53,660 nucleotides of DNA from a virus (Duplodnaviria; Caudoviricetes), in the IMG/VR virus record IMGVR_UViG_3300025887_000028, positions 1-53,660 of that record; one strand, written 5' to 3'. The notes beneath the pieces were generated by a model, which ran no database searches, was not told where the DNA came from, and worked only from the letters and a program-made list of their open reading frames with translations. Of the stretch, positions 14,376 to 45,529 are shown piece after piece. The position numbers and the translations under genes were made by a program. Positions within the stretch are counted from its first letter, which is position 1, and the number at the start of each line of letters is the position of its first letter.

Positions 14376-14379
<4 letters not shown>

Positions 14380-31048: not shown

Positions 31049-31071
31049 TAGTATTCATATTCGTTATAAGC

Positions 31072-31100
31072 ATTATACACATTCTCAGCACCCATGTCAA
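31072..31100 (-). promoter_or_regulatory. Consensus sigma70 promoter pointing antisense to the uvsW operon
   Basis: Minus strand TTGACA-N17-TATAAT. Confidence 0.65.
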
Positions 31101-31114
31101 CCATTAATTAGGGG

Positions 31115-31143
31115 TTGACATCACATATATTTTGGTATACAAT
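31115..31143 (+). promoter_or_regulatory. sigma70 promoter for gp55
   Basis: TTGACA-N17-TACAAT. Confidence 0.8.
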
Positions 31144-31162
31144 GAAAAGAAAAGGATTTGAA

Positions 31163-31687
31163 ATGGCTAAAGCTAAAAGAAATTATGTAAACAACGCTCA
31201 CTTTTTCGATGCTATGGTTGAGTACCGCAAGCTATGCGAAGATGCTGAGAACGGTGGAGACGAACATCCACGAATACCGAACTACATAGGCGAGTGTCTA
31301 TATCAGATAGCGAATCGTCTTGCAACAAAACCTAACTTCTCTGGATATTCATATAAAGAAGAGATGATTAGTGATGGATTAGAAAATGCGATCATGGCAG
31401 TCAAGAACTTTGATCCAGATAAGTCTAAGAATCCATTCGCATACTTCACACAAGTCATCTACTTTGCGTTTCTCAGACGAATCGAAAAAGAGAAGAAGCA
31501 GTTGTACATCAAACACAAGGTTGTTGAAAACTCTGTAATTCATGATACAGCAGTCGATAGATCAGGTGGTGGCGAGAGTAAAGATGGTAGTGCTGCATAC
31601 ATTGACTTGGATAATGATTACATGAGTAACTTTGTTGAAGGATATGAAGCCACTATGCAGAAGAAACGAGATAATGCGAAAAAATGA
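31163..31687 (+). CDS. gp55: Late sigma factor gp55
   Basis: NYVNN, IPNYIGEC, NFSGYSYKEEMISDG, NPFAYFTQ; ATG 31163 with agga SD. Confidence 0.96.
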   Translation: MAKAKRNYVNNAHFFDAMVEYRKLCEDAENGGDEHPRIPNYIGECLYQIANRLATKPNFSGYSYKEEMISDGLENAIMAVKNFDPDKSKNPFAYFTQVIYFAFLRRIEKEKKQLYIKHKVVENSVIHDTAVDRSGGGESKDGSAAYIDLDNDYMSNFVEGYEATMQKKRDNAKK

Positions 31688-31699
31688 TGGAGTATAATT

Positions 31700-31867
31700 A
31701 TGGCGCAACCTTTACCAGTTATTATAGAAGACTTAGTTGCTAAAGTAAGAGATAGTAAGACGCATCCTGAACAGAGGCAGCATTACGCAGGAACTTTGAA
31801 AAATATTATTGATGAAAGCACCAAAGCATATAAGCAATGGGAGCAAGATTGGGTTAATAGACGATAA
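31700..31867 (+). CDS. Small hypothetical protein (55 aa)
   Basis: Not in ORF track: MAQPLPVIIEDLVAKVRDSKTHPEQRQHYAGTL...; ggag SD, TAATG overlap with gp47. Confidence 0.7.
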   Translation: MAQPLPVIIEDLVAKVRDSKTHPEQRQHYAGTLKNIIDESTKAYKQWEQDWVNRR

Positions 31868-32934
31868 TGAAGATAGCCATTATAACTGACACACACTGGG
31901 GTGCGAGAAATGACAACGCTGCACTTGCACATCACTTTGCAAAATTTTATACCGACGTATTCTTTCCTACCCTAGAAGCTGAAGGTGTAAAGACTATTTT
32001 GCATTTGGGCGATTTAATGGATCGTCGTAAATATGTCAACTATGTTACAGCAAGAAACACTGAAACGTATTTCATCAAACCGTGTTATGACATGGGTATT
32101 GATGTTCATATCATTGCAGGTAATCACGACACATACTACAAGAATACGAACGAAGTCAACAGTCTACGCGAGTTGTACTCGGAAACAAAGTATGATAATT
32201 TAAATCTATATTGGGAAAAGCCGACTGAATTGCATTTCGATGGCTGTGATATTATGCTTGCGCCATGGATTTGCGCAGACAATTCACACGAGACACTTGA
32301 AATATTTCAGAATACCAAGGCGCAAGTTCTTATGGGTCACTTTGAAATCTCTGGCTTTGAGATGATGAAAGGTCACTTGTGTGATCATGGGTTAAGCAAA
32401 TCTATCTTCAAAAAGTTTGACGATGTTTATTCTGGTCACTTTCATCATCCGTCATCGCATGATAACATCACATATCTTGGCGCACCGTATGAGATGAACT
32501 GGTCGGATTATGACGGAAAACGTGGATTTCACATCTTTGATACCAAAACTCGTGAGATGACTTTCTATCAAAATCCACATAGAATCTTTCATAAAATCAT
32601 CTATGATGACACTGACATGACAATCGAAGATGTTGCAGAACTTGACATTTCTCTATTGACAAACACATTCATAAAGGTTATAATCAGAGAGAGAAATAAT
32701 CCATACATCTTTGATTTATTCCTTGACCGATTACAGTCAAGTGATGCTGCTGATATCAAGATTGTTGAAGATCATATGAACTTGGACTTAATCGGTGATG
32801 ACGAGTTGCTTGATGAAGCACAGGACACATTGACTATATTGAAGCAATATGTTGACACTATGAATCTGTCGAGCAATAAGGACAAGGTGAATACGTGCTT
32901 GCGTGAACTATACAGTGAGGCTATAAATCTGTGA
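31867..32934 (+). CDS. gp47: Recombination nuclease gp47 (Mre11/SbcD-like)
   Basis: DTHWG, GDLMD, GNHD, SGHFH. Confidence 0.96.
   Translation: MKIAIITDTHWGARNDNAALAHHFAKFYTDVFFPTLEAEGVKTILHLGDLMDRRKYVNYVTARNTETYFIKPCYDMGIDVHIIAGNHDTYYKNTNEVNSLRELYSETKYDNLNLYWEKPTELHFDGCDIMLAPWICADNSHETLEIFQNTKAQVLMGHFEISGFEMMKGHLCDHGLSKSIFKKFDDVYSGHFHHPSSHDNITYLGAPYEMNWSDYDGKRGFHIFDTKTREMTFYQNPHRIFHKIIYDDTDMTIEDVAELDISLLTNTFIKVIIRERNNPYIFDLFLDRLQSSDAADIKIVEDHMNLDLIGDDELLDEAQDTLTILKQYVDTMNLSSNKDKVNTCLRELYSEAINL
32656..32684 (+). promoter_or_regulatory. Internal sigma70 promoter in gp47 (for gp46)
   Basis: TTGACA-N17-TATAAT. Confidence 0.65.
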
Positions 32935-34640
32935 TACATTTTGATAAGTTATCCTATAAAAATATATTGTCAACAGGCAACGCTTGGACTGAGATTGATC
33001 TGGCAGCCAACAAATCTACGCTGATCGTGGGTGAAAACGGTGCTGGTAAATCGACTATGCTAGATGCAATCTGCTTTGCACTTTATGGTAAACCTTTTCG
33101 CAAGATTAACAAGCCACAGCTAATGAATTCTATCAATCAAAAAGACTTGAAGGTCAAGGTAGAATTTACAACATCTGGTCACAAATATATTGTTCTTAGA
33201 GGTATGAAGCCAGCCATCTTTGAGATATGGCGAGATGGTGAATTGCTTAATCAAGACGCAGCGGCGCGTGACTATCAAGCTTATCTTGAGGAGAATATTC
33301 TTAAATTGAATTTCAAATCTTTCGGACAAGTTGTTGTACTGGGTTCAAGTACATTCGTACCTTTCATGCAGCTACCCGCAAAGTCTAGACGCGATGTTAT
33401 TGAAGATTTGCTTGATATTCAAATCTTTACTGTCATGAACACTCTACTAAAAGAGAAGATTTCTGCGAATAAAGATAATGTCGCGGAAATAAAATATCAA
33501 ATTGACCTGCTCAAAAACAAAATCGAATCTGCTAAGAATCACAACGAATCTATTCGCAAAATCAAAGAAACTGAGGTTTCGCGAATCAAAGATCGTGTGA
33601 AAGAACAGTTAACTATCATTGAAGCAGAGGAGAAGAATATTGAATCTGTTTCTTCAGTGATGGACAATCTCACTGCGCAGATCGGTGACAAATCTTCCGA
33701 GAAAAAGAAGCTAGAAGAGCTTGGTAAGATAGACGATAAATTAGACACGAAGATGCGTCAGATCATGAAGGAAGTGAAGTTCTATGAGAATCATGATAAC
33801 TGTCCAACGTGTAAGCAAGGTATCGAGCACACATTCAAAGAAGATACCAAATCTTCGCATCTGGAAAAGGTCAAAGAAATTGAGTTGGCAAAGGAGCAAA
33901 TTGTCGAGCGAAAGTCGAAGCATATCAATAGACTTAATGTAGTAAGCGATATCGAGGACGAGATTTCTGCGCATCATCTCAGAGTATCTGAGCATAGAGC
34001 GAATGTTAAGTTTGCAAAGAATACGCTATCAAGTATTCGAACAGAGCTTGAAGATGCCCAGAAAGAATTTGAGAGTATTGACACATCTACCATAAATAAT
34101 CTAGAAAGCGATCTAAAGTCTTACCACGCGAATCAAACTGAGTTGTTTGATAGTCGAGAAACTTTGTCACTTGTCAGTTCAATGTTAAAAGATGGTGGCA
34201 TTAAAACGCGAATCATCAAACAGTATATTCCTATCATGAATAAATTGATCAACAAGTATCTTGCTGCTATGGATTTCTTTGTGCAATTTGAATTAGACGA
34301 GAGTTTTAATGAAACAATTAAGAGTCGTTTTCGTGACGAGTTTTCTTACGCTTCTTTCTCCGAAGGAGAGAAATTGCGTATTGACCTTGCCCTACTATTT
34401 ACATGGAGAGCAGTAGCAAAACTTCGTAACTCGGTATCTACTAATCTACTGATCATGGACGAGATTATGGATAGTAGTCTTGACAACACAGGAACAGAAG
34501 AGTTCTTGAAAATTATCAACGAACTTACAGCAGATTCCAACATCTTTATCATCAGTCACAAGGGTGATCAATTGTACGACAAATTCGATAACGTTATCCG
34601 TTTCGAAAAGGTTAAAAATTTTAGTAGAATGGCTACATAG
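32931..34640 (+). CDS. gp46: Recombination ATPase gp46 (Rad50/SbcC-like)
   Basis: GENGAGKST, CPTC zinc hook, FSEGEK signature, MDE, ISH. Confidence 0.97.
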   Translation: MIHFDKLSYKNILSTGNAWTEIDLAANKSTLIVGENGAGKSTMLDAICFALYGKPFRKINKPQLMNSINQKDLKVKVEFTTSGHKYIVLRGMKPAIFEIWRDGELLNQDAAARDYQAYLEENILKLNFKSFGQVVVLGSSTFVPFMQLPAKSRRDVIEDLLDIQIFTVMNTLLKEKISANKDNVAEIKYQIDLLKNKIESAKNHNESIRKIKETEVSRIKDRVKEQLTIIEAEEKNIESVSSVMDNLTAQIGDKSSEKKKLEELGKIDDKLDTKMRQIMKEVKFYENHDNCPTCKQGIEHTFKEDTKSSHLEKVKEIELAKEQIVERKSKHINRLNVVSDIEDEISAHHLRVSEHRANVKFAKNTLSSIRTELEDAQKEFESIDTSTINNLESDLKSYHANQTELFDSRETLSLVSSMLKDGGIKTRIIKQYIPIMNKLINKYLAAMDFFVQFELDESFNETIKSRFRDEFSYASFSEGEKLRIDLALLFTWRAVAKLRNSVSTNLLIMDEIMDSSLDNTGTEEFLKIINELTADSNIFIISHKGDQLYDKFDNVIRFEKVKNFSRMAT

Positions 34641-34649
34641 GAGAGTAAA

Positions 34650-34808
34650 ATGCAAACTGGAAGACTTGCTTCTTTAGAAAGCAAACATAAAGACTTGCAC
34701 AATCGTATTGAAGTTCTTGAGGCTGAGAAGGCACCTGAGAAGTATATTAAGCCTTTGAAAGTTGAAAAACTCATGATAAAGGACGAGATTGAAAAATTGC
34801 ATGTATAA
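34650..34808 (+). CDS. DUF465/YdcH-like small coiled-coil protein (52 aa)
   Basis: Not in ORF track: MQTGRLASLESKHKDLHNRIEVLE...LKVEKLMIKDEIEKL; aggag SD. Confidence 0.75.
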   Translation: MQTGRLASLESKHKDLHNRIEVLEAEKAPEKYIKPLKVEKLMIKDEIEKLHV

Positions 34809-35217
34809 CACTAAGATAGGATTCACATGCTCTGTTTTTGATTTACTCCACGCCGGACACATTGCTATGTTGCGCGAAGCAAAGACGCAGTGCGACTATC
34901 TTATCTGTGGGCTTCAGCTAGACCCGAATATTGATAGACCAGAGAAGAATAGACCGGTTCAGACTGTGGTAGAACGCTATACACAGCTATCAGCCGTCAA
35001 GTATGTTGACGAAATAATTCCGTATGTGACAGAAAAAGACTTGACAGATATGCTTGAAATGTATAGTATAGATGTAAGGATTTTGGGTGACGAATACAAA
35101 GACAAGGACTTCACTGGTCGTGAACTGTGTGATAAACTTGGTATTGACTTGTATTTCAATCGCCGCAACCATAGATTTTCATCAAGTGAATTGAGAAAAA
35201 GAATTTTGGAGAAATAA
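34801..35217 (+). CDS. Cytidylyltransferase (TagD/glycerol-3-phosphate CTase-like)
   Basis: FDLLHAGH (HxGH), YVDEII, RFSSSELR. Confidence 0.88.
   Translation: MYNTKIGFTCSVFDLLHAGHIAMLREAKTQCDYLICGLQLDPNIDRPEKNRPVQTVVERYTQLSAVKYVDEIIPYVTEKDLTDMLEMYSIDVRILGDEYKDKDFTGRELCDKLGIDLYFNRRNHRFSSSELRKRILEK
35041..35069 (+). promoter_or_regulatory. Possible internal sigma70 promoter upstream of the FkbM gene
   Basis: TTGACA-N17-TAGTAT. Confidence 0.45.
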
Positions 35218-35960
35218 TGAAATTAAAGAGGCATAATTATACGAAAAATATTTTAGACTTTATAGATGAATCTGAAGACGAATATATTGATTTAGAGTTA
35301 CAAGAGAATAAAGGTATGAAAGCCTATGTCCGACCTGAGACGTCTGATCCATTTGTTCTAAAAGAAGTCTCTTCTGGCGAATATCGCAAACTCAAAATTA
35401 CTCCAGATGATGTAATCGTTGACTTTGGTTTAAATATAGGTATGTTTACAACTTATGCCCTTTTACAAGGCGCAAAAGAGGTTCACTCCTTTGAAGCTGA
35501 AACTGAGAATTTTCAACTTGCTCAGATGAATGTGAAGCTTAACGGAGTTGATGATAGAGCATATCTCCATAATCGTGCTGTTGTTGGGAATGATGATGAA
35601 GAACGCTATTTCTCTATCAATGTAAAGAAAAATAAGGGTGCGCATTCACTTATTGAGAAGCGTGGTCGCGACACCGCCACCGTAAAGTGTATCAACGTCA
35701 ACAAGGTCTTAGAAGAAGTCAAGCCTAGCATTATTAAGATGGATATTGAAGGTGGTGAATATGAGGTCTTGAAATCCATTAAAAACTATGATACAATACA
35801 TCAATTGATATTTGAATTTCACCATGCACATTTGAACGATATTCCAGATCATCTTAAATATAATGAGATTTTGGACTTACTTCGTAAAGAGTTTTCCAAT
35901 GTTGAAGCAAGAGAAGATACAAAAGGCGCATGGGTATGTGTAGTATATTGTTGGAGATAA
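35217..35960 (+). CDS. FkbM-family SAM-dependent methyltransferase
   Basis: VDFGLNIGMF, VHSFEA, IKMDIEGGEYEVL, IFEFH. Confidence 0.88.
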   Translation: MKLKRHNYTKNILDFIDESEDEYIDLELQENKGMKAYVRPETSDPFVLKEVSSGEYRKLKITPDDVIVDFGLNIGMFTTYALLQGAKEVHSFEAETENFQLAQMNVKLNGVDDRAYLHNRAVVGNDDEERYFSINVKKNKGAHSLIEKRGRDTATVKCINVNKVLEEVKPSIIKMDIEGGEYEVLKSIKNYDTIHQLIFEFHHAHLNDIPDHLKYNEILDLLRKEFSNVEAREDTKGAWVCVVYCWR

Positions 35961-35961
35961 C

Positions 35962-37467
35962 ATGAATAAAACACCTAAATCAGTTGTTGAAGAGAGCGGC
36001 GAATACGATAACTACCTCGACTTTCAAAAGAGAGTCGAGGACTCGTATAGTGTTGGTCTAGAAAAATTCTTTGGCGAAGAAGTACCAGATGTTCTGTACG
36101 ATCAGACGAAAGCCAAGCGTAAAAATGATGCTTGGAAAGTTGTTTATGTTCACTTCCGTAATATAGACGACCTTGAGGACTTCTGTAAGCGTATAAATCA
36201 AATGTTGGATTACAAGAAGAAAGTGACCTGGTATCCTTTGATTGATAGAGGTGCGACTCTGTTTGACGATGGAGATGAAGGTGAAATTGCAATTGATCGT
36301 ACACTTCTTATTCCTCGTAAGGAAACAAAAGAGAAGTTGCCTACTCTTGGTGAACTCAAGTGGAAGCAACACTGGCATGGTATGCCTGAGTTTGCGCAAG
36401 AGCATAGAGAACCGTTTCGCACCGTTCATGTGAAGTTTCGTAACGAAGAAGACTACCGAGAGTTTTCTCGGAAAATTGACCAAGAACTTACTGATAAGAC
36501 GAAAGCTATCTGGCATCCCAAGCTAGAGATTACAGCGAATCGTCTTCTGCGTTGGGTCGAAGATGGTGAGAGAACTCAAGCAAAACATCCACTCTACATT
36601 ATTTCAAAGACACGCTATGACAGTATGTTCACGTCACGTTCTTTGGCACGTATGCAGATTCCACATTACATTGCGATTGAGCCTCAAGAAGAAGAGCAAT
36701 ACGAAAAGGCACTAGACAACTTTGGTATTCGTGACTATGTAACACTTCTTGTTGCTCCATTCTCCAATCATGGCGATGGTCCAGGTCGTGCAAGAAACTG
36801 GTGTTGGGATCACTCTATCAGCATCGGTGCTAAGTATCACTGGGTCTTTGATGACAACATTAGTGACTTCTATCGTCTCCATGAGAATCAGCGTATTCGC
36901 TTTGAGAGTGGTGCAGGGTTTCGTGCGATGGAAGACTTTGTAGAGAGATTTAAGAATGTTTACATTGCTGGTCCACAGTATCGTTTCTTTATTGCACCAG
37001 ATCAGAAGTATCCTGCATTCGTTGCCAACACCCGTATATATTCTGCTTTGCTTATCAGGAATGATTGTAAGCATCGCTGGCGTGGTCGTTACAATGAAGA
37101 CACTGATATCTGCCTTCGGGTTCTGAAAGATGGCGACTGTACCATTCAGTTCAATGCATTTATGCAAGGCAAAGCTGCAACTCAGACTGTAAAGGGTGGT
37201 AATACCGCTGAGTTCTATCACGCAGAGAACTCGGAGAAGATTGATGATGCCACGAACTACAATGCTGAAGGTACTGTGAACAAATCGCAAATGCTTGTTG
37301 ATATGCACCCAGATGTAGCCCGTCTTGTCTGGCGCTATGGTCGCTGGCACCACTGGGTTGACTATGAACCCTTCAAGAAGAACCAGTTGAAGTATGTTGA
37401 TGGCTTCGAGGTGCCTACTGGCGTAAATAATTACGGAATGCGTCTAGAAACCGATTTTAAGGGTTGA
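35962..37467 (+). CDS. TET-associated/GREB1-like (TAGT) glycosyltransferase with duplicated N-terminal accessory domain
   Basis: YIISKTR, IEPQE..Y, GPGRARNWCWDH, HWVFDDNI, RIYSALLI, WRGRYNEDTDICLR, KGGNT. Confidence 0.78.
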   Translation: MNKTPKSVVEESGEYDNYLDFQKRVEDSYSVGLEKFFGEEVPDVLYDQTKAKRKNDAWKVVYVHFRNIDDLEDFCKRINQMLDYKKKVTWYPLIDRGATLFDDGDEGEIAIDRTLLIPRKETKEKLPTLGELKWKQHWHGMPEFAQEHREPFRTVHVKFRNEEDYREFSRKIDQELTDKTKAIWHPKLEITANRLLRWVEDGERTQAKHPLYIISKTRYDSMFTSRSLARMQIPHYIAIEPQEEEQYEKALDNFGIRDYVTLLVAPFSNHGDGPGRARNWCWDHSISIGAKYHWVFDDNISDFYRLHENQRIRFESGAGFRAMEDFVERFKNVYIAGPQYRFFIAPDQKYPAFVANTRIYSALLIRNDCKHRWRGRYNEDTDICLRVLKDGDCTIQFNAFMQGKAATQTVKGGNTAEFYHAENSEKIDDATNYNAEGTVNKSQMLVDMHPDVARLVWRYGRWHHWVDYEPFKKNQLKYVDGFEVPTGVNNYGMRLETDFKG

Positions 37468-37492
37468 CATTCATGACGAATCACTATACATT
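37464..37492 (+). promoter_or_regulatory. sigma70 promoter with CGAATCA in the spacer
   Basis: TTGACA-N17-TACATT. Confidence 0.7.
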
Positions 37493-37519
37493 CATAATGT
37501 AACAAAGAGAGTGATAGCC

Positions 37520-37741
37520 ATGAATGTCAATGTTAGCGGTAATGAACTTCTGAAAATCTTCAACGAGTGCGGTGTTCAAGGCTGGCCTGAGAAGAAAATG
37601 AAGTTCATTCGGCGTGATGTTCGTCAACTGCGGGACTGGTTCCACGATAATGTTATCACTGTTGAAGAAATGCAAAATATTAATGGTTTCGGCAAGAAGC
37701 GGCAGCAATATGTTTTAGAATTTATCAGTGTTTTTTGTTGA
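37520..37741 (+). CDS. Small protein with a C-terminal helix-hairpin-helix-like motif
   Basis: TVEEMQNINGFGKKRQQYV; own promoter. Confidence 0.6.
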   Translation: MNVNVSGNELLKIFNECGVQGWPEKKMKFIRRDVRQLRDWFHDNVITVEEMQNINGFGKKRQQYVLEFISVFC

Positions 37742-37766
37742 CATACAGCGAATCATGTGCTATATG
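37738..37766 (+). promoter_or_regulatory. sigma70 promoter with CGAATCA in the spacer
   Basis: TTGACA-N17-TATATG, TG-extended. Confidence 0.7.
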
Positions 37767-37800
37767 TCTAGTGTGAAATGAAGAAAGTGAGTTATATACT

Positions 37801-39252
37801 ATGAAAAATATGCTAATCAATTCGAACTATCGCAAAATTGACGTTCCTATTCGTGAACTGCTTCTTCGCTACGGCGAGATTGATGTTCAGCCTGTAGGTC
37901 AACGACTAGATACAGAGCCTCAACTTGAGAAATCAAATGATCAATCAAAAGCACAAGGTATCATCAACTCAATTATGATGGGCGTTGACTTAGGTCAGAT
38001 CACAATTCACGAAAAAACTCCAGGCAGCTTTGCTTACGCTGATACTCCTCCTGTAATGGTCGATGGTCAGTGGCAGTTTGAACTGTTAGATCCAACCACC
38101 ACAGCTGGCAGCATGTTTGCTTATGAAAGCGTTGATGGTGGGCACCGTAAACGCTACATCTTCATGTATTTCAACAACAAATTTCGTTGGAATGGGATGT
38201 ACTATAGTGATCTTTCGCCAGAGCAAAAGAAAAAATTTCTTGAAACGAATCTTACATTTTGCATCTATTCAAACTTGTCTATCTATGAAACTGGTTACAT
38301 CTTCCGCTCTTTGAATGAGACTACCGATGTAAATCATCAAGAGATGTTGAACTCGTATGGAGATATTCCAATTGCGAATGCAATTCGTAACACTGTTCGC
38401 CCTGTTCGTGGTGTAAACAACAAAATACACTCTTTCTTTGAGTTTAGCCAAAAAGAAGGCAAAGCAAAGGTGTTCAACGCTATTGCGTTTGATAACAAGC
38501 GCCTTCGTCATGACGAAATGATTGCTCGTGTCTTTTATCGCTACTATGATGGTGGTGGCTTGGGTAAAGCTGATGATGTTGCACTTGAAGAGTTGTACGA
38601 GTCTGATTTGTCACAGAAAGAGGTGGACAAAATCTATGCGAGTGTAAAGAAACTGCTAAACTTTGTTGAAGAAATTTCAACTCAAATAAATCGTTCACTA
38701 GCCAAAAAGATGAACCAAACCGAGTTTAGCTTGTTCTCCCGTATCTGGCTGTATATGGAAGAAGAATTTGAAACTTTCAAAGTCAATGATTATGCAGAGT
38801 TTTATGAAGCTATCTCTACTGCTTATGCTCCATTCACTCTTCCTTATGATAGTCAACCAGCCGAACTTCGTCAGCCTTCTCCATGGGATGCGAACAAAAC
38901 ACGTGGTCAACAGTTCAAAGATGTTTTAGGTTATCACCGTGACCGTGAACCTATCTTTGAGTGCTTGATGTGGCTATTGAAAAGCGTTGATATGGCTTCT
39001 TTGGTAACTCTAAAGGATCCAAAGCGTATCTTTCCACGTGCGTGGCGTGAAGCAAAACTTATTGAACAAGGCTTCAAGTGTGCGATTTCAGGTGAACCAT
39101 TGACAATGGCTGATGCACATGGCGCACACAAAACAGCCCATGCTGAAGGTGGTCTGACTACATACGATAACTTGGCTATGGTTTCAGCTTATCACAATAA
39201 GCGCATGGGCAGCATGACTGTTGAGCAATACACTTCATTGGTAGCAGCATGA
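37801..39252 (+). CDS. GmrSD-like protein: DUF262 (ParB/Srx-like) domain plus C-terminal HNH nuclease
   Basis: QPVGQR, IINSIMMG, VDGGHR, FRSLN..T..N.QE; CAISGE...HKTAHAEGGLTTYDNL......N. Confidence 0.75.
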   Translation: MKNMLINSNYRKIDVPIRELLLRYGEIDVQPVGQRLDTEPQLEKSNDQSKAQGIINSIMMGVDLGQITIHEKTPGSFAYADTPPVMVDGQWQFELLDPTTTAGSMFAYESVDGGHRKRYIFMYFNNKFRWNGMYYSDLSPEQKKKFLETNLTFCIYSNLSIYETGYIFRSLNETTDVNHQEMLNSYGDIPIANAIRNTVRPVRGVNNKIHSFFEFSQKEGKAKVFNAIAFDNKRLRHDEMIARVFYRYYDGGGLGKADDVALEELYESDLSQKEVDKIYASVKKLLNFVEEISTQINRSLAKKMNQTEFSLFSRIWLYMEEEFETFKVNDYAEFYEAISTAYAPFTLPYDSQPAELRQPSPWDANKTRGQQFKDVLGYHRDREPIFECLMWLLKSVDMASLVTLKDPKRIFPRAWREAKLIEQGFKCAISGEPLTMADAHGAHKTAHAEGGLTTYDNLAMVSAYHNKRMGSMTVEQYTSLVAA

Positions 39253-39893
39253 AGCCAAACCGTAAAGACTTCATATTTGATATGGAAACACTAGGGGCAA
39301 GGGTTAACTCTTGTCCTGTAGTGGATATGGCCTACACAACATTTGAGTGGGATCGTTTCATCGAAGACCCGTATTCGTTTCAGGAACTTGCAGCGAATGT
39401 GCAGACAGTCAAGCTATCGGTGAAAGATCAATTGGATAACTATGGTTGCAAGTTCACAAAAGAAGATGTTCAATGGTGGGAGAAGCTTCCAAAAGAGGCT
39501 CGTGACAAGCTAAAAATAACGCCAAACGACTTGACAGTTACTGAATTTTGTGATATTATACTTAAATATCTGAGAGAACAAGTCAATATTGATTACTGGT
39601 GGTCGAGAGGTAACACTTTCGATCCAGTTATTCTTGGTAGATTGATGGATGAAACTAACAATGAGTATCTATTTAAAGAGTATTTGAAGTTTTACAAAGT
39701 GAGAGATGTTCGTACCCACATTGATGCAAAGTTCAATTATACCACAAAAAATGGCTTTGTACCAGTACAAGATGATGAAAAGTGGTATAAATACTTTGTA
39801 GCACACGATAGTAGCCATGATGTGGCTGCGGACATAATGAGACTACAAGCCATTCATCGGGCTGAACATGATTTAGAGCAAGTGAGTATATAA
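39249..39893 (+). CDS. dexA: DexA-like DEDDh 3'-5' exonuclease
   Basis: FDMETL, WWSRGNTFD, RDVRT, HDSSHDVAAD. Confidence 0.85.
   Translation: MKPNRKDFIFDMETLGARVNSCPVVDMAYTTFEWDRFIEDPYSFQELAANVQTVKLSVKDQLDNYGCKFTKEDVQWWEKLPKEARDKLKITPNDLTVTEFCDIILKYLREQVNIDYWWSRGNTFDPVILGRLMDETNNEYLFKEYLKFYKVRDVRTHIDAKFNYTTKNGFVPVQDDEKWYKYFVAHDSSHDVAADIMRLQAIHRAEHDLEQVSI
39531..39559 (+). promoter_or_regulatory. Possible internal sigma70 promoter in dexA
   Basis: TTGACA-N17-TATTAT. Confidence 0.5.
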
Positions 39894-40321
39894 TGGGTAA
39901 AAAAACTAAGCATCCAGCATCTGAGACTGGAGCAATGCGAGAAGCATTGGGTGTGCCTTATTTCCGACAAGTTCCTCTTGAAGCTGTGGCTGCTGGCGCT
40001 GTATCTTTGGAGTATGGCGCACTCAAGTATGCACATCGCAATTGGGAAAGGGGTCTTCCTTGGCAGCAAATGATCGACAGTCTCAAGCGTCATATTGACG
40101 ACTTCGAGCGCGGGCATGACTACGACAGTGGACCAGACGGTTCTGACCTTCATCAAGTTTGTATGATTATGGCATCTGCTATGATGTTATCTGCGTCAGT
40201 AATTCGAGGCGTAGGTGAAGATGATCGTATGCCTGCCACTGGAGAAGATGCGTTGTCTGCAAAACAATGTGCAAAATGGATGAAAGAACAACTTGATAAT
40301 TCTAGATTGAAGGGTAGTTAA
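39893..40321 (+). CDS. dATP/dGTP diphosphohydrolase-domain protein (DUF5664-like)
   Basis: TGAMRE, P.EA, YGALKY..RNWERG, SLKRH, D..S.LH. Confidence 0.75.
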   Translation: MGKKTKHPASETGAMREALGVPYFRQVPLEAVAAGAVSLEYGALKYAHRNWERGLPWQQMIDSLKRHIDDFERGHDYDSGPDGSDLHQVCMIMASAMMLSASVIRGVGEDDRMPATGEDALSAKQCAKWMKEQLDNSRLKGS

Positions 40322-41235
40322 TGGATATTGAAATTAGAACAAGCGATTTACAAGATAAGAAGCTGTTCATAGCCACGCCAATGTATGGTGGGCAATGTGC
40401 AGGTATGTTTACAAAAGCGACGAACGATTTAGCTATGGCGTGTACGCGTCATGGCATTGATGTGCGTTTCTACTATCTATTTAATGAAAGTTTGATCACA
40501 CGGGCTCGCAACTACTGTGTTGATGAATTTTTACGATCTGACTGTACACATCTACTTTTTATCGATTCGGATATCGGATTTGATTATAAAGACGTGTTAA
40601 CATTGTTGCATCTTACTGGTACAGATGACTACGATGTTATGACTGGACCTTATCCTAAGAAGACAATTTCGTGGGAGAAAGTTGCTAAAGCTGCCGAGCA
40701 AGGCTTTGCTGACGAGAATCCATTCATGCTGGAGCACTTTGTTGGTGACTATGTTTTCAATCCTGCTGAGGGTATAAAGTCGTTTAAGATCGACGAGCCT
40801 GTTGAAATTCGAGAAGGCGGTACAGGCTTTATGATGATTACCCGTAAAGTATTTGAAAAATATGAAGAGTCATATCCAGACCTCAAATACAAACCCGATC
40901 ATGTACGCACTGAAAATTTCGACGGTACTCGCGAGATCATGGCGTATTTTGACACTATTATTGATCCAGATACAAGACGTTATCTTTCAGAGGACTATAT
41001 GTTTTCGTATAACGTCCGAAAGATGGGTATGAATATTTGGATGTGTCCATGGATGAAGTTGAAGCATGTTGGTTCATACATCTTCGGAGGATCAATTAGC
41101 GCAATGGCAGCTATTAAAGCATCACCAACTGCATCAAAAGAATCTAACAAAAAACATTACTTGCAATCACCTAAAAAAGATGATACAATCAACAGACAGC
41201 AACGTAGGGCTGCAAAGACAAAGAAGGATACTTAA
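40321..41235 (+). CDS. GT-A fold glycosyltransferase-like protein
   Basis: IATPMYGG, ESLITRARN, LLFIDSDI (DxD), GTGFMMI, YLSEDYMF, HVG. Confidence 0.8.
   Translation: MDIEIRTSDLQDKKLFIATPMYGGQCAGMFTKATNDLAMACTRHGIDVRFYYLFNESLITRARNYCVDEFLRSDCTHLLFIDSDIGFDYKDVLTLLHLTGTDDYDVMTGPYPKKTISWEKVAKAAEQGFADENPFMLEHFVGDYVFNPAEGIKSFKIDEPVEIREGGTGFMMITRKVFEKYEESYPDLKYKPDHVRTENFDGTREIMAYFDTIIDPDTRRYLSEDYMFSYNVRKMGMNIWMCPWMKLKHVGSYIFGGSISAMAAIKASPTASKESNKKHYLQSPKKDDTINRQQRRAAKTKKDT
41161..41189 (+). promoter_or_regulatory. sigma70-type promoter for gp45
   Basis: TTGCAA-N17-TACAAT. Confidence 0.55.
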
Positions 41236-41237
41236 TA

Positions 41238-41888
41238 ATGAAATTTAGTGACGATACAGTCTCTATCTTGAAGAATTTCTCTGGCATTAACCAGGGTCTA
41301 CTATTCAAGCCAGGTAACACTCTGACAACTATTTCCCCGCAACAAACAGTAATGGCAAGCGCCACTATCTCTGAAACTCTTGATGGACGCGCAGCAGTGT
41401 ACGATCTTTCGCGTTTTCTGTCAACAGTATCACTATTCAATGATAGCGTTGATGTAAAGTTTGGATCTGAGAAGTTTGAGATTCGAGATGATCGCCGTAA
41501 GGTATCATATGTCTACGCGGCTGAAAACATGATTGTTACTCCACCAGAAAAGCAAATGAAATTGCCTAATGCTGATGTTACAGTTGATATCAAATGGATT
41601 GACATTGAAAGTGCTATCAGAGGCGCAGGTGTTCTACAGGTGAGTGATATTGCATTCACAGGCGCCAATGGTAAAATTCTATTGCGGGCTGTTGACTCTA
41701 AAAATTCGACATCAGATACATATGATATCGAAATTTCTGACTATGATGGAGAAGACTTTGAGATGACGATCAAAGTTGATAACCTTAAACTATTGCCAGC
41801 AGATTATACTGTTTCGCTTTCAAAGGCTGGCATCTCACATTTCAAATCGACCAATGTTCAATATTGGATCGCAGTTCAAGCTAACTAA
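41238..41888 (+). CDS. gp45: Sliding clamp gp45
   Basis: ILKNFSGIN, YDLSRFL, NLKLLPADY, YWIA. Confidence 0.95.
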   Translation: MKFSDDTVSILKNFSGINQGLLFKPGNTLTTISPQQTVMASATISETLDGRAAVYDLSRFLSTVSLFNDSVDVKFGSEKFEIRDDRRKVSYVYAAENMIVTPPEKQMKLPNADVTVDIKWIDIESAIRGAGVLQVSDIAFTGANGKILLRAVDSKNSTSDTYDIEISDYDGEDFEMTIKVDNLKLLPADYTVSLSKAGISHFKSTNVQYWIAVQAN

Positions 41889-41897
41889 GGAGATATA

Positions 41898-42134
41898 ATG
41901 GCTGATCAGGAACAAGAAGTCCCTAAAGAGGGTACACAATTGCAGATCGTTGATCTACAAGCGCTACTGCAAGTCGTTGATGTGCTTTCATCACGAGGTG
42001 CAGTTAAACCAGAGGAAATGAGTGCAGTTGGTGCTATTCGCGATAAACTTGCAACATTTCTATCAGAAGTGCCGGCAGCAGCCGCAAATGAAACAGAAGG
42101 CACTGACGAAGACGCTACCGAAGCAGAAGCTTAA
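41898..42134 (+). CDS. Small hypothetical protein
   Basis: aggag SD; DLQALLQVVDVLSSRGA...EMSAVG. Confidence 0.7.
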   Translation: MADQEQEVPKEGTQLQIVDLQALLQVVDVLSSRGAVKPEEMSAVGAIRDKLATFLSEVPAAAANETEGTDEDATEAEA

Positions 42135-42138
42135 TGTG

Positions 42139-42158
42139 GAGGGGGTGAAAGCCCCCTC
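42139..42158 (+). terminator. GNRA-capped hairpin between the hypothetical gene and gp44
   Basis: gagggggt-gaaa-gccccctc; no clear U-tail. Confidence 0.5.
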
Positions 42159-42176
42159 TCATAACAATATTATATA

Positions 42177-43142
42177 ATGGAGACTAATATGGTCAATGAT
42201 GTAAATGATTTTCTATGGGTTCAGAAGCACCGCCCGCAAACTGTTGCCGACACTATTCTACCTGAAAATTTGAAAAAGACGTTTCAGCAATTTGTCGATC
42301 AAGCCAACGTTCCCAATCTAATTCTTTCTGGTAGTGCTGGTGTTGGCAAAACAACTGTTGCCAAAGCAATGCTTGAAGAGATTGGTGCAAACTATATCGT
42401 AATCAACGGCTCTATGGAAGGGCGTAAGATCGATACACTGCGTAATCAAATCGCACAGTTTGCGTCTACTGTTTCTTTTCAAGGTGGGCGTAAATATGTT
42501 ATTCTTGACGAGGCCGATTATCTTAACACTGACTCTGTGCAACCAGCTCTTCGCAACTTCATGGAAGAATTTTCAAGTAACTGTGGCTTCATCTTGACAT
42601 GTAACTTCCGCAATCGTATCATCGAACCTTTGCAGTCCCGTTGTTCCGTTATTGAATTTAGAATTACAAAAGAAGATAAGGCGACTATTGCTTCACAGTT
42701 CTTCAAGCGTGTCATCAGCATTCTAGATGAAGAGGGTGTCGAGTATTCGAAAAAAGCTGTTGCAGAAGTTATTCAGACGTATTTTCCTGACTGGCGCAGA
42801 GTTTTAAACGAATTGCAGCGATATTCTGCCACTGGTCGTATTGATGAAGGTGTACTCGCAAATAAGACAAGCGATAACATGAACAAGTTGATCAAGCTTA
42901 TGAAAGAGAAAAATTTCACCGAGATTCGTAAATGGGTGTCTGAAAACTCTGATATTGATAGCGCGGTGCTATATCGACAATTGTACGACATTCTACCCGA
43001 AAAGCTTGGTAGCGCACCAAGTATTGCAGACGCCATTATCATTCTTGCTGAGTATCAGTATAAAGAGGCATTTGTTGCAAACTCTGAAATCAATCGTGTC
43101 GCTGCTCTTGCTACGCTTATGGTCGAGGCTCAGTGGAAATGA
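42177..43142 (+). CDS. gp44: Clamp loader large subunit gp44
   Basis: WVQKHRP, GSAGVGKTT, DEAD, LQSRC, FPDWRR. Confidence 0.96.
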   Translation: METNMVNDVNDFLWVQKHRPQTVADTILPENLKKTFQQFVDQANVPNLILSGSAGVGKTTVAKAMLEEIGANYIVINGSMEGRKIDTLRNQIAQFASTVSFQGGRKYVILDEADYLNTDSVQPALRNFMEEFSSNCGFILTCNFRNRIIEPLQSRCSVIEFRITKEDKATIASQFFKRVISILDEEGVEYSKKAVAEVIQTYFPDWRRVLNELQRYSATGRIDEGVLANKTSDNMNKLIKLMKEKNFTEIRKWVSENSDIDSAVLYRQLYDILPEKLGSAPSIADAIIILAEYQYKEAFVANSEINRVAALATLMVEAQWK

Positions 43143-43327
43143 TGGGGTTTTTCAAGAGAAAAAAGTACAAGTGTCTCGTATGTGAGAAGGGTGTTGGTGA
43201 AAGCTCTCCTATAGTTCGATATCGCTATGGTAATGGTGAAACTGGTGAAGCCAGACTTTGTAACAAATGTGCAAATAAATTCGATAAAGTCGAGTTGGAG
43301 GATAATGCAGATGGCTGGAGCGTTTGA
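43139..43327 (+). CDS. Small Cys4 zinc-binding protein
   Basis: CLVC ... LCNKC; ATGA overlap with gp44 stop. Confidence 0.6.
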   Translation: MMGFFKRKKYKCLVCEKGVGESSPIVRYRYGNGETGEARLCNKCANKFDKVELEDNADGWSV

Positions 43328-43703
43328 TTATGTGAACAATATTCTCTATGGTAAAAAGCCAAACATGATGCGCGATACAGAAAATGATACGCTGGCTGAG
43401 GCTGGCTACGTTGCATGGCAGACTAATTTGGCATTGACTCTGCATCCCGACACAGTTTTGAACGCAAACCTCATGAATCAATATCATCAGCTAAACAATC
43501 GTGCTCAATACGAATTTTATAAATATAGCGTTAGACCTAATAAGCGCGGACGCGTTCCTTGGGTTAAATCGATTGATGATGAAGTGTTGGATATGATTTG
43601 TGAAACGTATTGCTGTAATCGTAATGTTGCGCGTGAATATCTTCCTTTGTTGTCTAATGAGCAATTAAAAACCATGAAAGAACAACAACAAAAGGGTGGT
43701 TAA
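43311..43703 (+). CDS. gp62: Clamp loader small subunit gp62
   Basis: FDYVNNI, DTVLNANLMN, QYEFY, W.K; GGAGG SD; synteny gp44-gp62-regA. Confidence 0.88.
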   Translation: MAGAFDYVNNILYGKKPNMMRDTENDTLAEAGYVAWQTNLALTLHPDTVLNANLMNQYHQLNNRAQYEFYKYSVRPNKRGRVPWVKSIDDEVLDMICETYCCNRNVAREYLPLLSNEQLKTMKEQQQKGG

Positions 43704-44104
43704 TGATGGAAGATATTTTTAAAGGATGTGGCGTTGAAATAGAGTTGCCGGATTCTGAAAGCTTTTTAAAGGTCAAGGAAACATTGACACGGATAGGTAT
43801 TGCCTCCCGTAAAGATAAAAAGCTATACCAGTCATGTCACATCTTGCACAAGCAGGGTAGATATGCTATACTACATTTCAAAGAGCTTTTTATGCTCGAC
43901 GGAAAAATCAATAATTTTACAGACGAAGATAAAGCGCGTAGGAATACAATTGTGAACCTTATCGAAGAGTGGGGTCTGATTGAAGCAGTTGATCCATCGC
44001 AAATTGAAGAACCTATTGCACCTTTGTCGCAGATTAAAGTTCTACCACATCGCGATAAAGGTGAATGGGAATTGGTAGCAAAATACAGTATTGGAAGAAA
44101 ATAA
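43703..44104 (+). CDS. regA: Translational repressor RegA
   Basis: FLKVKETLTRIGIAS, LYQSCHILHKQGRYAILHFKELF, KYSIG. Confidence 0.97.
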   Translation: MMEDIFKGCGVEIELPDSESFLKVKETLTRIGIASRKDKKLYQSCHILHKQGRYAILHFKELFMLDGKINNFTDEDKARRNTIVNLIEEWGLIEAVDPSQIEEPIAPLSQIKVLPHRDKGEWELVAKYSIGRK

Positions 44105-44107
44105 AAT

Positions 44108-44662
44108 ATGACTCACTTTGATATGGTTCGTGAATTTATGGAAGCGTTCGGGCAAGAGGTAAAAACCTCTCCCGAGTTTCCGACTCAAGGGATTGCAGAT
44201 TTACGATATGAACTTATTGCAGAAGAAGTAAAAGAACTTCTAGAAGGTATGCTTAACTTCGATGTGGTTGAAATTGCAGACGCACTCACAGACATTTTGT
44301 ATGTTGCATATGGCGCTGGTCACGCGTTTGGTGTAGACCTACAGGATCTATGCACTGAAGAGTCTAATACAGAACCGTCTAGTTTTCAGAGTATTCTATC
44401 GGCTACTATGGGTGTAGGTATTTCGATCAGAGCCAAAAGCTTGAATGCAATACAATACACTCTAACTGATTTGATTGGAGCTGTATACAAAATGGGTGAG
44501 GATCGCGAAATTAATTTACATGCTTGCTTCACAGAGGTTCAACGATCTAACATGAGCAAGCTCGGTGAAGACGGTAAGCCCATTCGCCGGGAAGATGGTA
44601 AAATTTTGAAAGGTCCAAATTATTCTGAACCTAACTTGGAATTTGTGCGCAAAGTCGTATAA
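44108..44662 (+). CDS. MazG/HisE-like all-alpha NTP pyrophosphohydrolase
   Basis: VREFMEAFGQ, LIAEEVKE, ADALTDILYVAYG, EVQRSNMSK, DGKILKGPNY. Confidence 0.85.
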   Translation: MTHFDMVREFMEAFGQEVKTSPEFPTQGIADLRYELIAEEVKELLEGMLNFDVVEIADALTDILYVAYGAGHAFGVDLQDLCTEESNTEPSSFQSILSATMGVGISIRAKSLNAIQYTLTDLIGAVYKMGEDREINLHACFTEVQRSNMSKLGEDGKPIRREDGKILKGPNYSEPNLEFVRKVV

Positions 44663-44665
44663 ATA
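44658..44665 (+). promoter_or_regulatory. Late promoter TATAAATA upstream of hsp20
   Basis: Exact consensus. Confidence 0.75.
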
Positions 44666-44670
44666 AATGT

Positions 44671-44724
44671 GAGCGCCGTAATGGGCTCAAAAATCAATCT
44701 TGCTTAATAAGGAGATAACAAATG
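44671..44724 (+). promoter_or_regulatory. ROSE-like RNA thermometer in the hsp20 5' UTR
   Basis: Upstream hairpin plus AUCUUGCUU-aau-AAGGAGAU: UUGCU opposite the SD with a bulged G. Confidence 0.75.
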
Positions 44725-45180
44725 ACTACACGTAGATTCACTTCAGAAAATTTACTAAACGATCCGCTATTCATTGGTTTTGACGGTATTTTCAATAAAC
44801 TAACTCAACCAAATAAATCTGGCGCATCTAATTATCCACCATACAATCTAGTTAAAACAGGCGACTATACATATCTAATCGAACTTGCTGTTGCAGGATT
44901 CGATGAAGATGACTTCGATATTGAACTGCATAACGGTGTGCTATCTATTCGTGCGACTATTGATGGTACAGAAGATCAGGTCGACTATCTACATCGAGGT
45001 ATCGCAGCGCGAAGCTTTGAGCGCAAGTTCACTTTAGCAGATACTGTTGAAGTCGATGGTGTATCTTTACACCAAGGTATGCTCAATGTTAAACTTCGAA
45101 ATATCATTCCTGATGAAAAGAAGCCTAAGAAAATTCAGATTGAGACGCATCGTCTCAGTCAAGAGATGCTCACAGAGTAA
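44722..45180 (+). CDS. hsp20: Small heat shock protein Hsp20 (IbpA-like)
   Basis: IGFD, NYPPYNL, IELAVAGF, YLHRGIAARSFERKFTL, GML, PKKIQI. Confidence 0.95.
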   Translation: MTTRRFTSENLLNDPLFIGFDGIFNKLTQPNKSGASNYPPYNLVKTGDYTYLIELAVAGFDEDDFDIELHNGVLSIRATIDGTEDQVDYLHRGIAARSFERKFTLADTVEVDGVSLHQGMLNVKLRNIIPDEKKPKKIQIETHRLSQEMLTE

Positions 45181-45203
45181 CGGGTGGTTCCGTAATGAAC
45201 CCG

Positions 45204-45230
45204 TGGGGAGCCACGGTTAGCTCCCCTTTT
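45204..45230 (+). terminator. Rho-independent terminator after hsp20
   Basis: ggggagc-cacggtta-gctcccc-tttt. Confidence 0.75.
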
Positions 45231-45253
45231 AACACACATCACAGGAGACAAAA

Positions 45254-45472: not shown

Positions 45473-45529
45473 CAAAAATGCGTTGGGCTTCACAAAAGCC
45501 CTTCGCTTTGTTACATATGCATAAATCGC

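Follow-up and report, generated by a model that had tools for sequence, protein, structure and literature searches.

The window analysed here, 53,660 bases that make up the whole of IMG/VR record IMGVR_UViG_3300025887_000028 (positions 1 to 53,660), carries between the genes for the gp46-like recombination nuclease subunit and the gp45 sliding clamp an island centred on a gene for a TAGT-family glycosyltransferase (GT). PHROG annotation of the open reading frames (ORFs) of the window identified a T4-like myovirus whose genes are ordered as in cyanomyophages and pelagimyophages. A first block contains the neck, sheath, tube, portal, prohead protease, scaffold and major capsid genes; a second block, UvsY, UvsW, gp55, gp47 and gp46, leads into the island, after which follow gp45, gp44, gp62, RegA, MazG, Hsp20, gp43, UvsX and gp41. 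We conclude that the island is a modular glycan-building cassette lying inside the replication/recombination operon.

The gene positions given between gp46 and gp45 by an earlier annotation of this DNA (hereafter the sequence-only reading) were reproduced exactly by the ORF calls, all on the + strand (Table 1). The start that it gave for the nucleotidyltransferase gene, 34801, is the first ATG of an ORF that opens at 34789. From the DUF465 gene through gp45, the intergenic gaps are -20, -1, +1, 43, 59, -4, -1, -1 and +2 bases, and the nucleotidyltransferase, FkbM and TAGT genes are translationally coupled.

Table 1. Features of the island between gp46 and gp45, with their positions in the window. 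SAM: S-adenosylmethionine; aa: amino acids.
Feature	Position	Strand	Evidence or remark
gp46-like SbcC/Rad50 recombination nuclease subunit, left border	32931..34640	+	phrog_77 1.5e-174; AAA_23, SMC_N
DUF465 small protein	34650..34808	+	PF04325 28.8 bits vs cut-off 25; in 6/29 related islands
HxGH nucleotidyltransferase (cytidylyltransferase-like)	34789..35217	+	PF01467 5.8e-13; phrog_7878 5.3e-35
FkbM-family SAM methyltransferase	35217..35960	+	PF05050 1e-16; TIGR01444 over cut-off
N-terminal part of the 501-aa protein: two tandem GMPEF domains	35962..36570	+	no Pfam family; elements of the structure model
TAGT-family GT-A glycosyltransferase domain	36571..37467	+	PF20691 4.3e-42; phrog_842 6.2e-47
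76-aa ORF	37511..37741	+	no family match
483-aa nuclease, C-terminal HNH, N-terminal DGGHR (ParB/Srx-like?) region	37801..39252	+	homologue profiles
DexA-like 3'-5' exonuclease	39249..39893	+	PF16473 8.5e-12; phrog_255 6e-34
T4-type late-promoter motif (TATAAATA), sole one of the island	39786..39793	+	upstream of diphosphohydrolase, 304-aa GT-A and gp45
MazG/DUF550-type dATP/dGTP diphosphohydrolase N-domain protein	39893..40321	+	PF18909 1.5e-18; phrog_801 1.3e-16
304-aa GT-A glycosyltransferase	40321..41235	+	phrog_1574 3.3e-65; predicted fold
gp45 sliding clamp, right border	41238..41888	+	PF09116; phrog_223 1.2e-69

The labels CTP_transf_like, FkbM, TAGT, DexA-like and dGTP_diPhyd_N, already assigned in the sequence-only reading, all scored above the curated cut-offs. 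The nucleotidyltransferase reached 49.6 bits against a cut-off of 21 for PF01467 (CTP_transf_like) and carries a HAGH motif of the HxGH type. It missed the equivalog level of both TagD (TIGR01518, 66.9 bits vs 165.4) and RfaE-II (TIGR02199, 75.8 bits vs 181.5). Its nearest solved relatives are the CDP-alcohol-forming ethanolamine-phosphate cytidylyltransferase (5.7e-22) and TagD (4e-12), and its PHROG family is named for heptose-1-phosphate adenylyltransferase. Because the solved relatives, the PHROG name and the equivalog scores disagree, the predicted product is left as either a CDP-alcohol or a nucleoside diphosphate (NDP)- or ADP-sugar donor. The FkbM protein scored 62 bits with PF05050 (cut-off 22.7) and 77.8 bits with TIGR01444 (cut-off 37.7), and a SAM-binding motif I, VDFGLNIG, is visible in it; this enzyme probably O-methylates the transferred group or the donor.

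The third coupled gene encodes a 501-aa protein, residues 210-413 of which match the TAGT family PF20691 at 144.8 bits (cut-off 27.5). The structure model of this protein (pLDDT 85, pTM 0.84) has a C-terminal domain of the GT-A type, which matched in the PDB the GT domain of LH3, GnT-I, SpsA, ColGalT1 and mimivirus R699 (E about 2e-6); POMGnT1 is also among the protein-modifying GT-A fold matches in the PDB from the searches made for the TAGT and 304-aa proteins, and a single-sequence PDB search with the 501-aa protein gave nothing useful. Residues D297-D298 and N378-E-D-T-D382 are invariant in an alignment of 60 TAGT sequences. In a library of viral structures the matches were TAGT-named proteins, with a beta-glucosyl-HMC-alpha-glucosyltransferase (HMC: hydroxymethylcytosine) of a T4-like Klebsiella phage at rank 14 (E 5.7e-10, TMt 0.64, 13% identity). 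The top match was A0A6G6XN95 of BFVD, an 890-aa protein with 31% identity over 455 aligned columns; a larger fusion thus exists, in which about 400 further residues are added to the GMPEF-TAGT architecture described below.

Residues 1-200 of the 501-aa protein consist of two copies of a beta-alpha-beta unit of about 70 aa with the motif W-x-GMPEF ... W-x-P, for which we coined the name GMPEF domain. The modelled elements of the two copies are strand 59-65, helix 68-78 and strand 88-91, and strand 153-159, helix 162-172 and strand 182-185. Pfam holds no family for this region, and the ESM Atlas returned no named family for it, all scores being below 0.9. The GMPEF domain alone was found in 1792 cluster representatives at E<=1e-3, mostly proteins of 80-130 aa, and of the 8000 metagenome candidates scored for the fused form of about 500 aa, 7468 qualified as relatives at E<=1e-5; relatives are also encoded by several hundred IMG/VR stretches. 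In related IMG/VR loci the N-terminal GMPEF region (N-domain) and TAGT are separate genes, the order of which is reversed in some. In locus L015 an FkbM gene (235 aa) stands between those for the N-domain (112 aa) and TAGT (300 aa). In L029 and L034 this place is taken by a 317-320-aa protein with a weak match (0.004-0.006) to the DXD sugar-binding region PF04488, and these two GT32-like proteins are 53% identical to each other.

The make-up of the island was compared across relatives. From 159 loci fetched with TAGT, 96 were non-redundant, and 29 of these held both gp46 and gp45; the N-domain was counted when its match spanned at least 40% of the query. It was present in 23/29 islands, followed by DexA (16), the 304-aa GT-A (13), the diphosphohydrolase and a CobS/CobT-like pair (12 each), the cytidylyltransferase (11), a GT-B (10) and phosphomannomutase (4), and FkbM, the 483-aa nuclease and a gp1-like deoxynucleoside monophosphate (dNMP) kinase were each found in 3/29. 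The closest large relative, the 91-kb record G005, encodes a gp43 and a TAGT that are 63% and 66% identical to those of the window, and its island reads gp46, DUF465, phosphomannomutase (PF03332), CTP_transf_like, GT-B (Glycos_transf_1) and GMPEF-TAGT. In L029 the island combines a CTP_transf_3 enzyme, of the CMP-Kdo/CMP-sialic-acid synthetase family, with the GT32-like gene, which hints at an acidic sugar as the predicted donor in that lineage. Judged by these annotations, the enzymes around TAGT vary, yet always appear to activate, transfer or tailor sugars, and since the sugar enzymes are swapped around TAGT, the first three genes can be read as one pathway. The view of these genes as a unit for donor activation, methylation and glycosyl transfer, put forward in the sequence-only reading, is thus supported both by the other sugar enzymes that fill the slot in relatives and by the FkbM gene between the N-domain and TAGT genes of L015.

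Some further features of these relatives were recorded. Upstream of the N-domain in L029 (L029:7814-9692), the CTP_transf_3 enzyme is accompanied by a possible HD-domain protein and a peptide deformylase; a 190-aa protein of this locus, of a PHROG named "DNA methyltransferase", was rejected as a methyltransferase, as it has no Pfam match and its sole solved relative is a weak HD-domain match. L015 (L015:8063-9306 and L015:16929-17522, record G001) encodes a class-I SAM methyltransferase (PF08242) and a 201-aa 2-oxoglutarate (2OG)-Fe(II) oxygenase just upstream of the N-domain, FkbM and TAGT genes, and a gp1-like dNMP kinase (PF21448) after the 304-aa GT-A homologue; the order of methyltransferase, oxygenase and GT resembles that of MT/5mYOX/GT clusters. 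The oxygenase (phrog_81, 3e-17) has no Tet_JBP match and sub-threshold Pfam matches of the prolyl-hydroxylase type, and, being present in 1/29 islands, serves as a lead only. G005 also carries (L166:6277-12749) a CHASE2-cyclase, a FecR-like gene, curlin-repeat genes, CsgG and CsgF, which form a curli (type VIII secretion system) set of the pelagiphage type, as well as genes for heme oxygenase, bilin reductase, NifU, serine hydroxymethyltransferase (SHMT) and a class I/II aminotransferase.

Two complete phage genomes with terminal repeats, G011 (28,668 bases) and G014 (28,921 bases), encode TAGT directly upstream of the TerS and TerL genes. In both, the gene before TAGT encodes a ParB_N domain fused to one GMPEF domain, and in G011 this protein is additionally fused to a GT32-like GT (508 aa in all). 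A ParB_N-GMPEF fusion was also found in L034; the GMPEF-TAGT protein of the window itself has no ParB_N. At 43-58% identity, the ParB_N of the G011/G014 type resembles the N-terminal domain of phage proteins that carry an annotation as adenine-specific or DNA methyltransferase; 20 of the 25 listed rows, out of 195 records that match this ParB_N, are so annotated. The same ParB_N is thus attached either to a DNA methyltransferase or to GMPEF plus a GT, which may point to DNA targeting. A subclass of phage DNA thymine dioxygenases is likewise described, in the available part of the source, as requiring ParB-family partners (PMC13229309, 2026).

The 304-aa protein next to gp45 has no Pfam family, and neither a single-sequence nor a family-profile search found anything for it in the PDB. 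Its model (pLDDT 74) gave as top Foldseek match the GT-A protein A197 of Sulfolobus turreted icosahedral virus (STIV; E 2.7e-8), followed by ColGalT1, ppGalNAcT2 and Mnn9, and a D82-S-D84 motif is invariant in the family; the earlier description of this protein as a second GT-A enzyme is thus borne out by the fold. In many T4-like phages its gene adjoins gp45, whether TAGT is present or not. Homologues are 50-59% identical in Cr30, DLP6 and the phiM12 group, and in Sinorhizobium phage phiM12 the homologue stands alone between gp46 and gp45, without TAGT. As it occurs without TAGT, it is an independent gene and not a fixed partner of TAGT. The GT-A fold is common to the 304-aa protein, A197 and the phrog_1574 proteins of phiM12, Cr30 and DLP6, from which the former differs by a conserved basic C-terminal tail (residues 252-304, ASPTASKESN ... 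NRQQRRA, with pLDDT below 50 over much of it); we know of no function for A197 or for these phrog_1574 proteins. It is possible that the tail binds the clamp or DNA. The T4 alpha-GT is reported, in what is available of the source, to bind gp45, and a complex prediction for gp45 and the 304-aa GT-A scored 0.00, which is evidence neither way.

The 76-aa ORF, previously labelled as a helix-hairpin-helix (HhH) protein, matched no family in Pfam, PHROGs, NCBIfam or PADLOC, and the label holds at motif level only, through a GFGKK-type motif in the translation. The 483-aa protein had been described as DUF262-HNH. It has itself no Pfam family, and a single-sequence PDB search gave nothing useful for it; among 43 homologues, HNH was found in 23 (best 4.7e-6), GmrSD_N/DUF262 in two and DndB in two. 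The HNH part of the label stood, with the family profile matching the HNH domain of Cas9 at 2.9e-4, and the DUF262 part is weak, resting on the two GmrSD_N matches and on a DGGHR-type motif in which G113, G114 and R116 are invariant and D112 and H115 are conserved in at least 90% of the family. PADLOC gave weak matches only: NsnA (3.9e-4, for the 483-aa nuclease), a type I restriction endonuclease and mad2. In its behaviour the nuclease gene resembles a mobile accessory gene: it is set off from the preceding genes by the 43- and 59-base gaps and shows 33-34% identity in the islands that contain it.

The DexA-like protein (PF16473) scored 45.6 bits and the diphosphohydrolase (dGTP_diPhyd_N, PF18909) 67.1 bits, both against a cut-off of 27. 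These two genes were found in the sub-lineage nearest to the window and not in islands of the CobS/CobT type, and their link to TAGT cannot be separated from shared descent because both track the lineage. MazZ/DUF550 enzymes act in Z-genome phages; the annotation of the window and of G005 contains no PurZ or adenylosuccinate-synthetase-like gene. We read the genes for the HNH nuclease, DexA and the dNTP diphosphohydrolase as ordinary lineage accessory nucleotide-metabolism genes, outside the pathway. The sequence-only reading had assigned to the nucleases and the dNTPase a role in discriminating self from non-self, and this part found no support: the nuclease is present in 3/29 islands, DexA and the diphosphohydrolase follow the lineage, and the 304-aa GT-A occurs without TAGT.

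The target of the cassette was then weighed. We estimate at about 0.5 the probability that DNA, in one version or another, is the acceptor. DNA was also the target proposed in the sequence-only reading, which is plausible, yet unproven: the characterised TAGT acts on DNA, ParB_N fusions exist, and no late promoter precedes the cassette. The nucleotidyltransferase would make an activated donor, a CDP-alcohol or an ADP/NDP-sugar, and the GMPEF domains would bring the TAGT enzyme to its substrate. TAGT would transfer the sugar directly, or onto a sugar laid by another GT, which may be the 304-aa GT-A in the window phage and a GT-B or GT32-like GT in its relatives, and the FkbM enzyme would cap the product by O-methylation. 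The likeliest substrate would be the newly replicated DNA of the phage itself, which a sugar-type hypermodification would protect against host nucleases. Instead of a T-even-like 5-hydroxymethyl- or 5-hydroxy-pyrimidine made by the phage, the acceptor would be a canonical base, another group of the DNA, or a base whose oxidation is due to an enzyme diverged beyond recognition. A more specific proposal is that ParB-guided GT modules with a GMPEF adaptor glycosylate DNA post-replicatively, without a phage-made hydroxymethyl or hydroxy pyrimidine, to give an undescribed O-methylated sugar or phospho-alcohol adduct, attached to a canonical base or backbone group or following oxidation by an unrecognised enzyme. 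We make this proposal tentatively and consider it doubtful in its complete form.

Several observations favour DNA. TAGT homologues with 38-48% identity were found by tblastn in phages of Aeromonas, Vibrio, Pectobacterium, Paraglaciecola and Tenacibaculum; the presence of TAGT in phages of hosts across phyla fits a universal substrate better than the envelope of one host. T-even TAGT, the only phage member of the family described as characterised in the available parts of PMC13216743 and PMC13390438, adds glucose to glucosyl-5-hydroxymethylcytosine (hmC) in DNA. A phage cluster with a cytidylyltransferase is reported, in the accessible text, to make heptosyl-5hmC (10.1101/2023.12.21.572611), and in HTVC023P-type pelagiphages, which are podoviruses, thymidine-hypermodification genes have a TAGT-annotated gene as neighbour (PMC9599517). 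As a side observation, the two TAGT homologues of Vibrio phage Kuja (Ackermannviridae; NC_048827: 30264-32952, L053) form a tandem pair beside a gene annotated as DNA end protector, with one gene of the thymidylate synthase (TS) family elsewhere in the genome; this phage may be a tractable cultured system for TAGT on DNA of the 5-hydroxymethyluracil (hmU) type.

Other results weigh against DNA as acceptor, and most of these concern the enzymes that would prepare a base. As stated in the sequence-only reading, the window has neither TET nor hydroxymethylase (PF12851 and PF00303, 0 matches each in the record). When the search was extended beyond the window to the records of relatives and to complete phages, neither TET/JBP nor hydroxymethylase was found. 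PF12851 (Tet_JBP) had no match in ten IMG/VR records that include the window's own and are 27-60% complete, nor in five complete isolate genomes with TAGT homologues. PF00303, the thymidylate synthase family, matched G005 alone among the ten records and none of five small TAGT phages, of which three have a completeness of 90% or more, and the phrog_81 2OG oxygenase was found in one (G001) of five records searched. A full Pfam scan of G011 and G014 showed no hydroxymethylase, TET, C5-methyltransferase or polymerase. Aeh1 and phage 65, both with TAGT homologues, do not appear in the list of gene-42 phages and lack gene 56 (PMC2993671, Table 4). The window, moreover, covers only the fraction of about 30% of the genome that was estimated for it, and TAGT was found in only 3 of 21 gp45-anchored islands (the loci, among 80, with gp46 and gp45 in order, found via an alignment; a single-protein gp45 scan of IMG/VR had returned one identical contig only), so that TAGT is not core to, and is accessory in, the wider phage group; the 304-aa GT-A was present in 9 of the 21. 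FkbM, phosphomannomutase and RfaE-like enzymes are typical of polysaccharide synthesis, and we know of no precedent for DNA glycosylation without a hydroxylated base. Finally, two published cases point elsewhere in the portions of the sources available: pelagimyophage GT genes are read as O-antigen modification (PMC7029224), and GREB1, an animal relative of TAGT, O-GlcNAcylates protein (PMC7968844).

The PF00303 protein of G005 looks like a true thymidylate synthase (ThyA) and not like a hydroxymethylase: its gene lies beside dihydrofolate reductase (DHFR), its best solved matches are all thymidylate synthases (best 4.5e-92), and the PFNIASY segment is kept. In this family, dUMP and dCMP specificity follow an Asn-to-Asp rule, and the Asn of the PFNIASY segment presumably marks dUMP specificity. 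G005 runs 65 kb past gp41, through NrdAB, ThyA with DHFR, dCMP deaminase and SHMT, and contains no hydroxymethylase or TET in that stretch; the window and G005 come from different phages and, if syntenic, together span about 118 kb of an estimated 170-180 kb, the nucleotide-metabolism block included. These results bear on the full model of the sequence-only reading, in which a hydroxymethylase or TET encoded in the unsampled 70% or so of the genome makes hmC or hmU, the cassette decorates it, and the nucleases and diphosphohydrolase destroy unmodified DNA and canonical dNTPs. The limited completeness of the window leaves space for such an enzyme, the T-even TAGT works on an hmC-derived base, and the L015 island does hold the gp1-like dNMP kinase, class-I methyltransferase and 2OG-Fe(II) oxygenase described above. 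According to the available part of PMC13229309, the Pfam model misses divergent 5mYOX enzymes on thousands of contigs, and an oxidase hidden from PF12851 is therefore also possible. However, the G005 stretch and the complete TAGT phages lack both enzymes, the phage-made hydroxymethyl-pyrimidine loses its basis when PF12851 gives 0/10 and 0/5 and PF00303 only the ThyA-like protein of G005, the nuclease is rare and its two neighbours track lineage, and the window annotation offers the diphosphohydrolase no partner of the PurZ or any other type. We therefore regard the full model as very unlikely.

Remodelling of the host envelope is a further possibility, in which the cassette would make an activated sugar or phospho-alcohol and add a methylated sugar to lipopolysaccharide (LPS), capsule or another surface glycan of the host, for example to block superinfection. 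Polysaccharide synthesis is the classic setting of FkbM, phosphomannomutase and the RfaE-II-like, TagD-like and CTP_transf_3 enzymes, the frequent exchange of cassette genes would suit glycan diversification, and no enzyme making a DNA acceptor was found. Pelagimyophage GT and rfaE-like genes have been read in this way in print, and few SAR11 genomes are said to have restriction systems, both in the available part of PMC7029224. On the other hand, the cassette has no membrane or flippase components, and its Pfam and PHROG annotation includes no flippase, polymerase or Gtr-type family; the highest values for hydrophobic 19-residue segments are 1.37 in the three coupled genes and 1.05 in the 304-aa GT-A, with none at or above 1.6. 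The hosts of the phages with 38-48% identical TAGT homologues belong to different phyla with differing envelopes, the ParB_N fusions and the position next to terminase genes in small phages point to DNA, and the island lies inside the replication operon, with a characterised phage TAGT that acts on DNA. Envelope remodelling is accordingly judged unlikely.

Transcription signals bear on a third possibility, namely that TAGT glycosylates a phage or host protein (of replication, packaging or the virion, or a host factor) and that the GMPEF domain is a protein-recognition module. The motif TATAAATA, which we take to represent the T4 late-promoter consensus, was matched 17 times in the window where 3.05 matches were expected; most of these sites lie shortly before structural genes, and none is upstream of the three coupled genes. 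There is thus no sign of co-expression of the cassette with virion genes. Within positions 4597-28220 of the window it stands a few tens of bases before nearly every structural gene, and late transcription of the T4 kind seems to be conserved in this phage. In T4, the alpha-gt and beta-gt genes are placed within the replication cluster. A protein target would agree with the activity of GREB1, with the protein-modifying enzymes LH3, ColGalT1, POMGnT1 and ppGalNAcT2 among the fold matches, with the missing DNA acceptor pathway, and with the location of TAGT homologues between the portal and head-morphogenesis genes of Vibrio phage 1.076.O and beside terminase in G011 and G014. Yet the fused partner is a ParB_N of the type linked to DNA methyltransferases, and no phage TAGT is, to our knowledge, known to act on protein, which makes this possibility quite unlikely. 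The rest of the weight goes to the absence of any common pathway among the cassette genes.

The window phage is an uncultured, aquatic T4-like phage. No isolate has a DNA polymerase more than 51% identical to that of the window phage, Phage C48C1 being the top match and cyanophages reaching 45-47%, and the island had no megablast match among 50,697 phage records. Public runs with a near-complete word match to the island are labelled as freshwater metagenomes, with small shares in estuary runs, and marine collections are the source of many of the protein relatives. Across positions 30000-46000, which take in the island together with replication genes, contigs of four metatranscriptome runs labelled as freshwater match with at least 99% identity, and one of the runs covers each of the 30 bins of the region. 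As these matches come from contigs, which carry neither strand nor level, and as DNA carry-over is possible, they show only the presence of the phage in RNA libraries. Elsewhere in the window, a 405-aa ORF after the portal gene (13162-14379) contains collagen-like tail-fibre repeats, matched by 40 PHROG families, and coincides with the highest GC skew and AT skew of the window. The sole large minus-strand gene (635-4561) encodes 1308 aa matched at several places by four small PHROGs without an assigned function, which suggests a repeat-built product, probably a fibre or other structural protein.

The name TAGT reportedly originates with Iyer et al. in 2013, and the family and the general logic of such pathways were already known; what is new here is the architecture and the missing acceptor pathway. 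The literature searched gave no description of the GMPEF domain, of its fusion to ParB_N and TAGT, or of a gp46-gp45 cassette in which donor and tailoring genes are swapped. A count published in 2026 put TAGT homologues that are solitary, with neither alpha- nor beta-GT, at 288 of 753 phage genomes, and their function was left undefined in the available part of that work (PMC13216743). The island provides a context for them, with a dedicated donor enzyme, swappable tailoring enzymes and a small domain that links to ParB_N, and the more than 7,400 metagenome relatives of the fused form indicate that its function, whatever it is, is widespread in natural waters. With DNA as the target, this would be a sugar modification pathway that needs no hydroxymethylase, with a bearing on restriction evasion, on the sequencing of environmental viromes and on enzymes for DNA labelling. 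Should the cassette act on the cell surface or on a protein instead, the annotation "beta-glucosyl-HMC-alpha-glucosyltransferase" would be misleading for hundreds of phages.

Among known systems, the beta-glucosyl-HMC-alpha-glucosyltransferase of T2 and T6 shares with the window TAGT the PF20691 family, a GT-A fold with a DxD-type motif and a place inside the T4-like replication gene cluster. In T2 and T6 a GT-B alpha-GT adds the first glucose and TAGT the second, as described in the available part of PMC13216743, and relatives of the window often pair a GT-B with TAGT. In contrast to the T-even type, the window enzyme, to which it is about 13% identical in structural alignment (no T-even phage was among the tblastn matches), has two N-terminal GMPEF domains, its own donor-activating enzyme and a methyltransferase, and the annotation of the window and of G005 lists no dCMP hydroxymethylase, alpha-GT or beta-GT, PF11440 and PF09198 not having been searched by name.

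The MT/5mYOX/GT clusters (Pyle et al., 10.1101/2023.12.21.572611), as far as described in the accessible text, share with the proposed pathway a post-replicative logic, GTs of polysaccharide families and accessory nucleotide-sugar enzymes, and the ParB-dependent thymine dioxygenase clusters in the available part of PMC13229309 share ParB-family partners, comparable to the ParB_N of G011 and G014. Both cluster types differ from the TAGT cassette in that no C5-methyltransferase and no recognisable 5mYOX enzyme is present in the window, its relatives or the complete small phages, and, unlike in the ParB-dependent dioxygenases, ParB_N is here fused on the GT side and not partnered with an oxidase. 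Lastly, the LPS clusters of pelagimyophages and cyanomyophages, in the available account of PMC7029224, occur in the same kind of phage and contain rfaE-like and GT genes in small clusters, and G005 shares CsgG and CsgF with these phages. Compared with those clusters, the cassette of the window lies in the replication operon and not in a host-recognition island, its anchor GT is TAGT and not GT8, and its accessory domain is linked to ParB_N.

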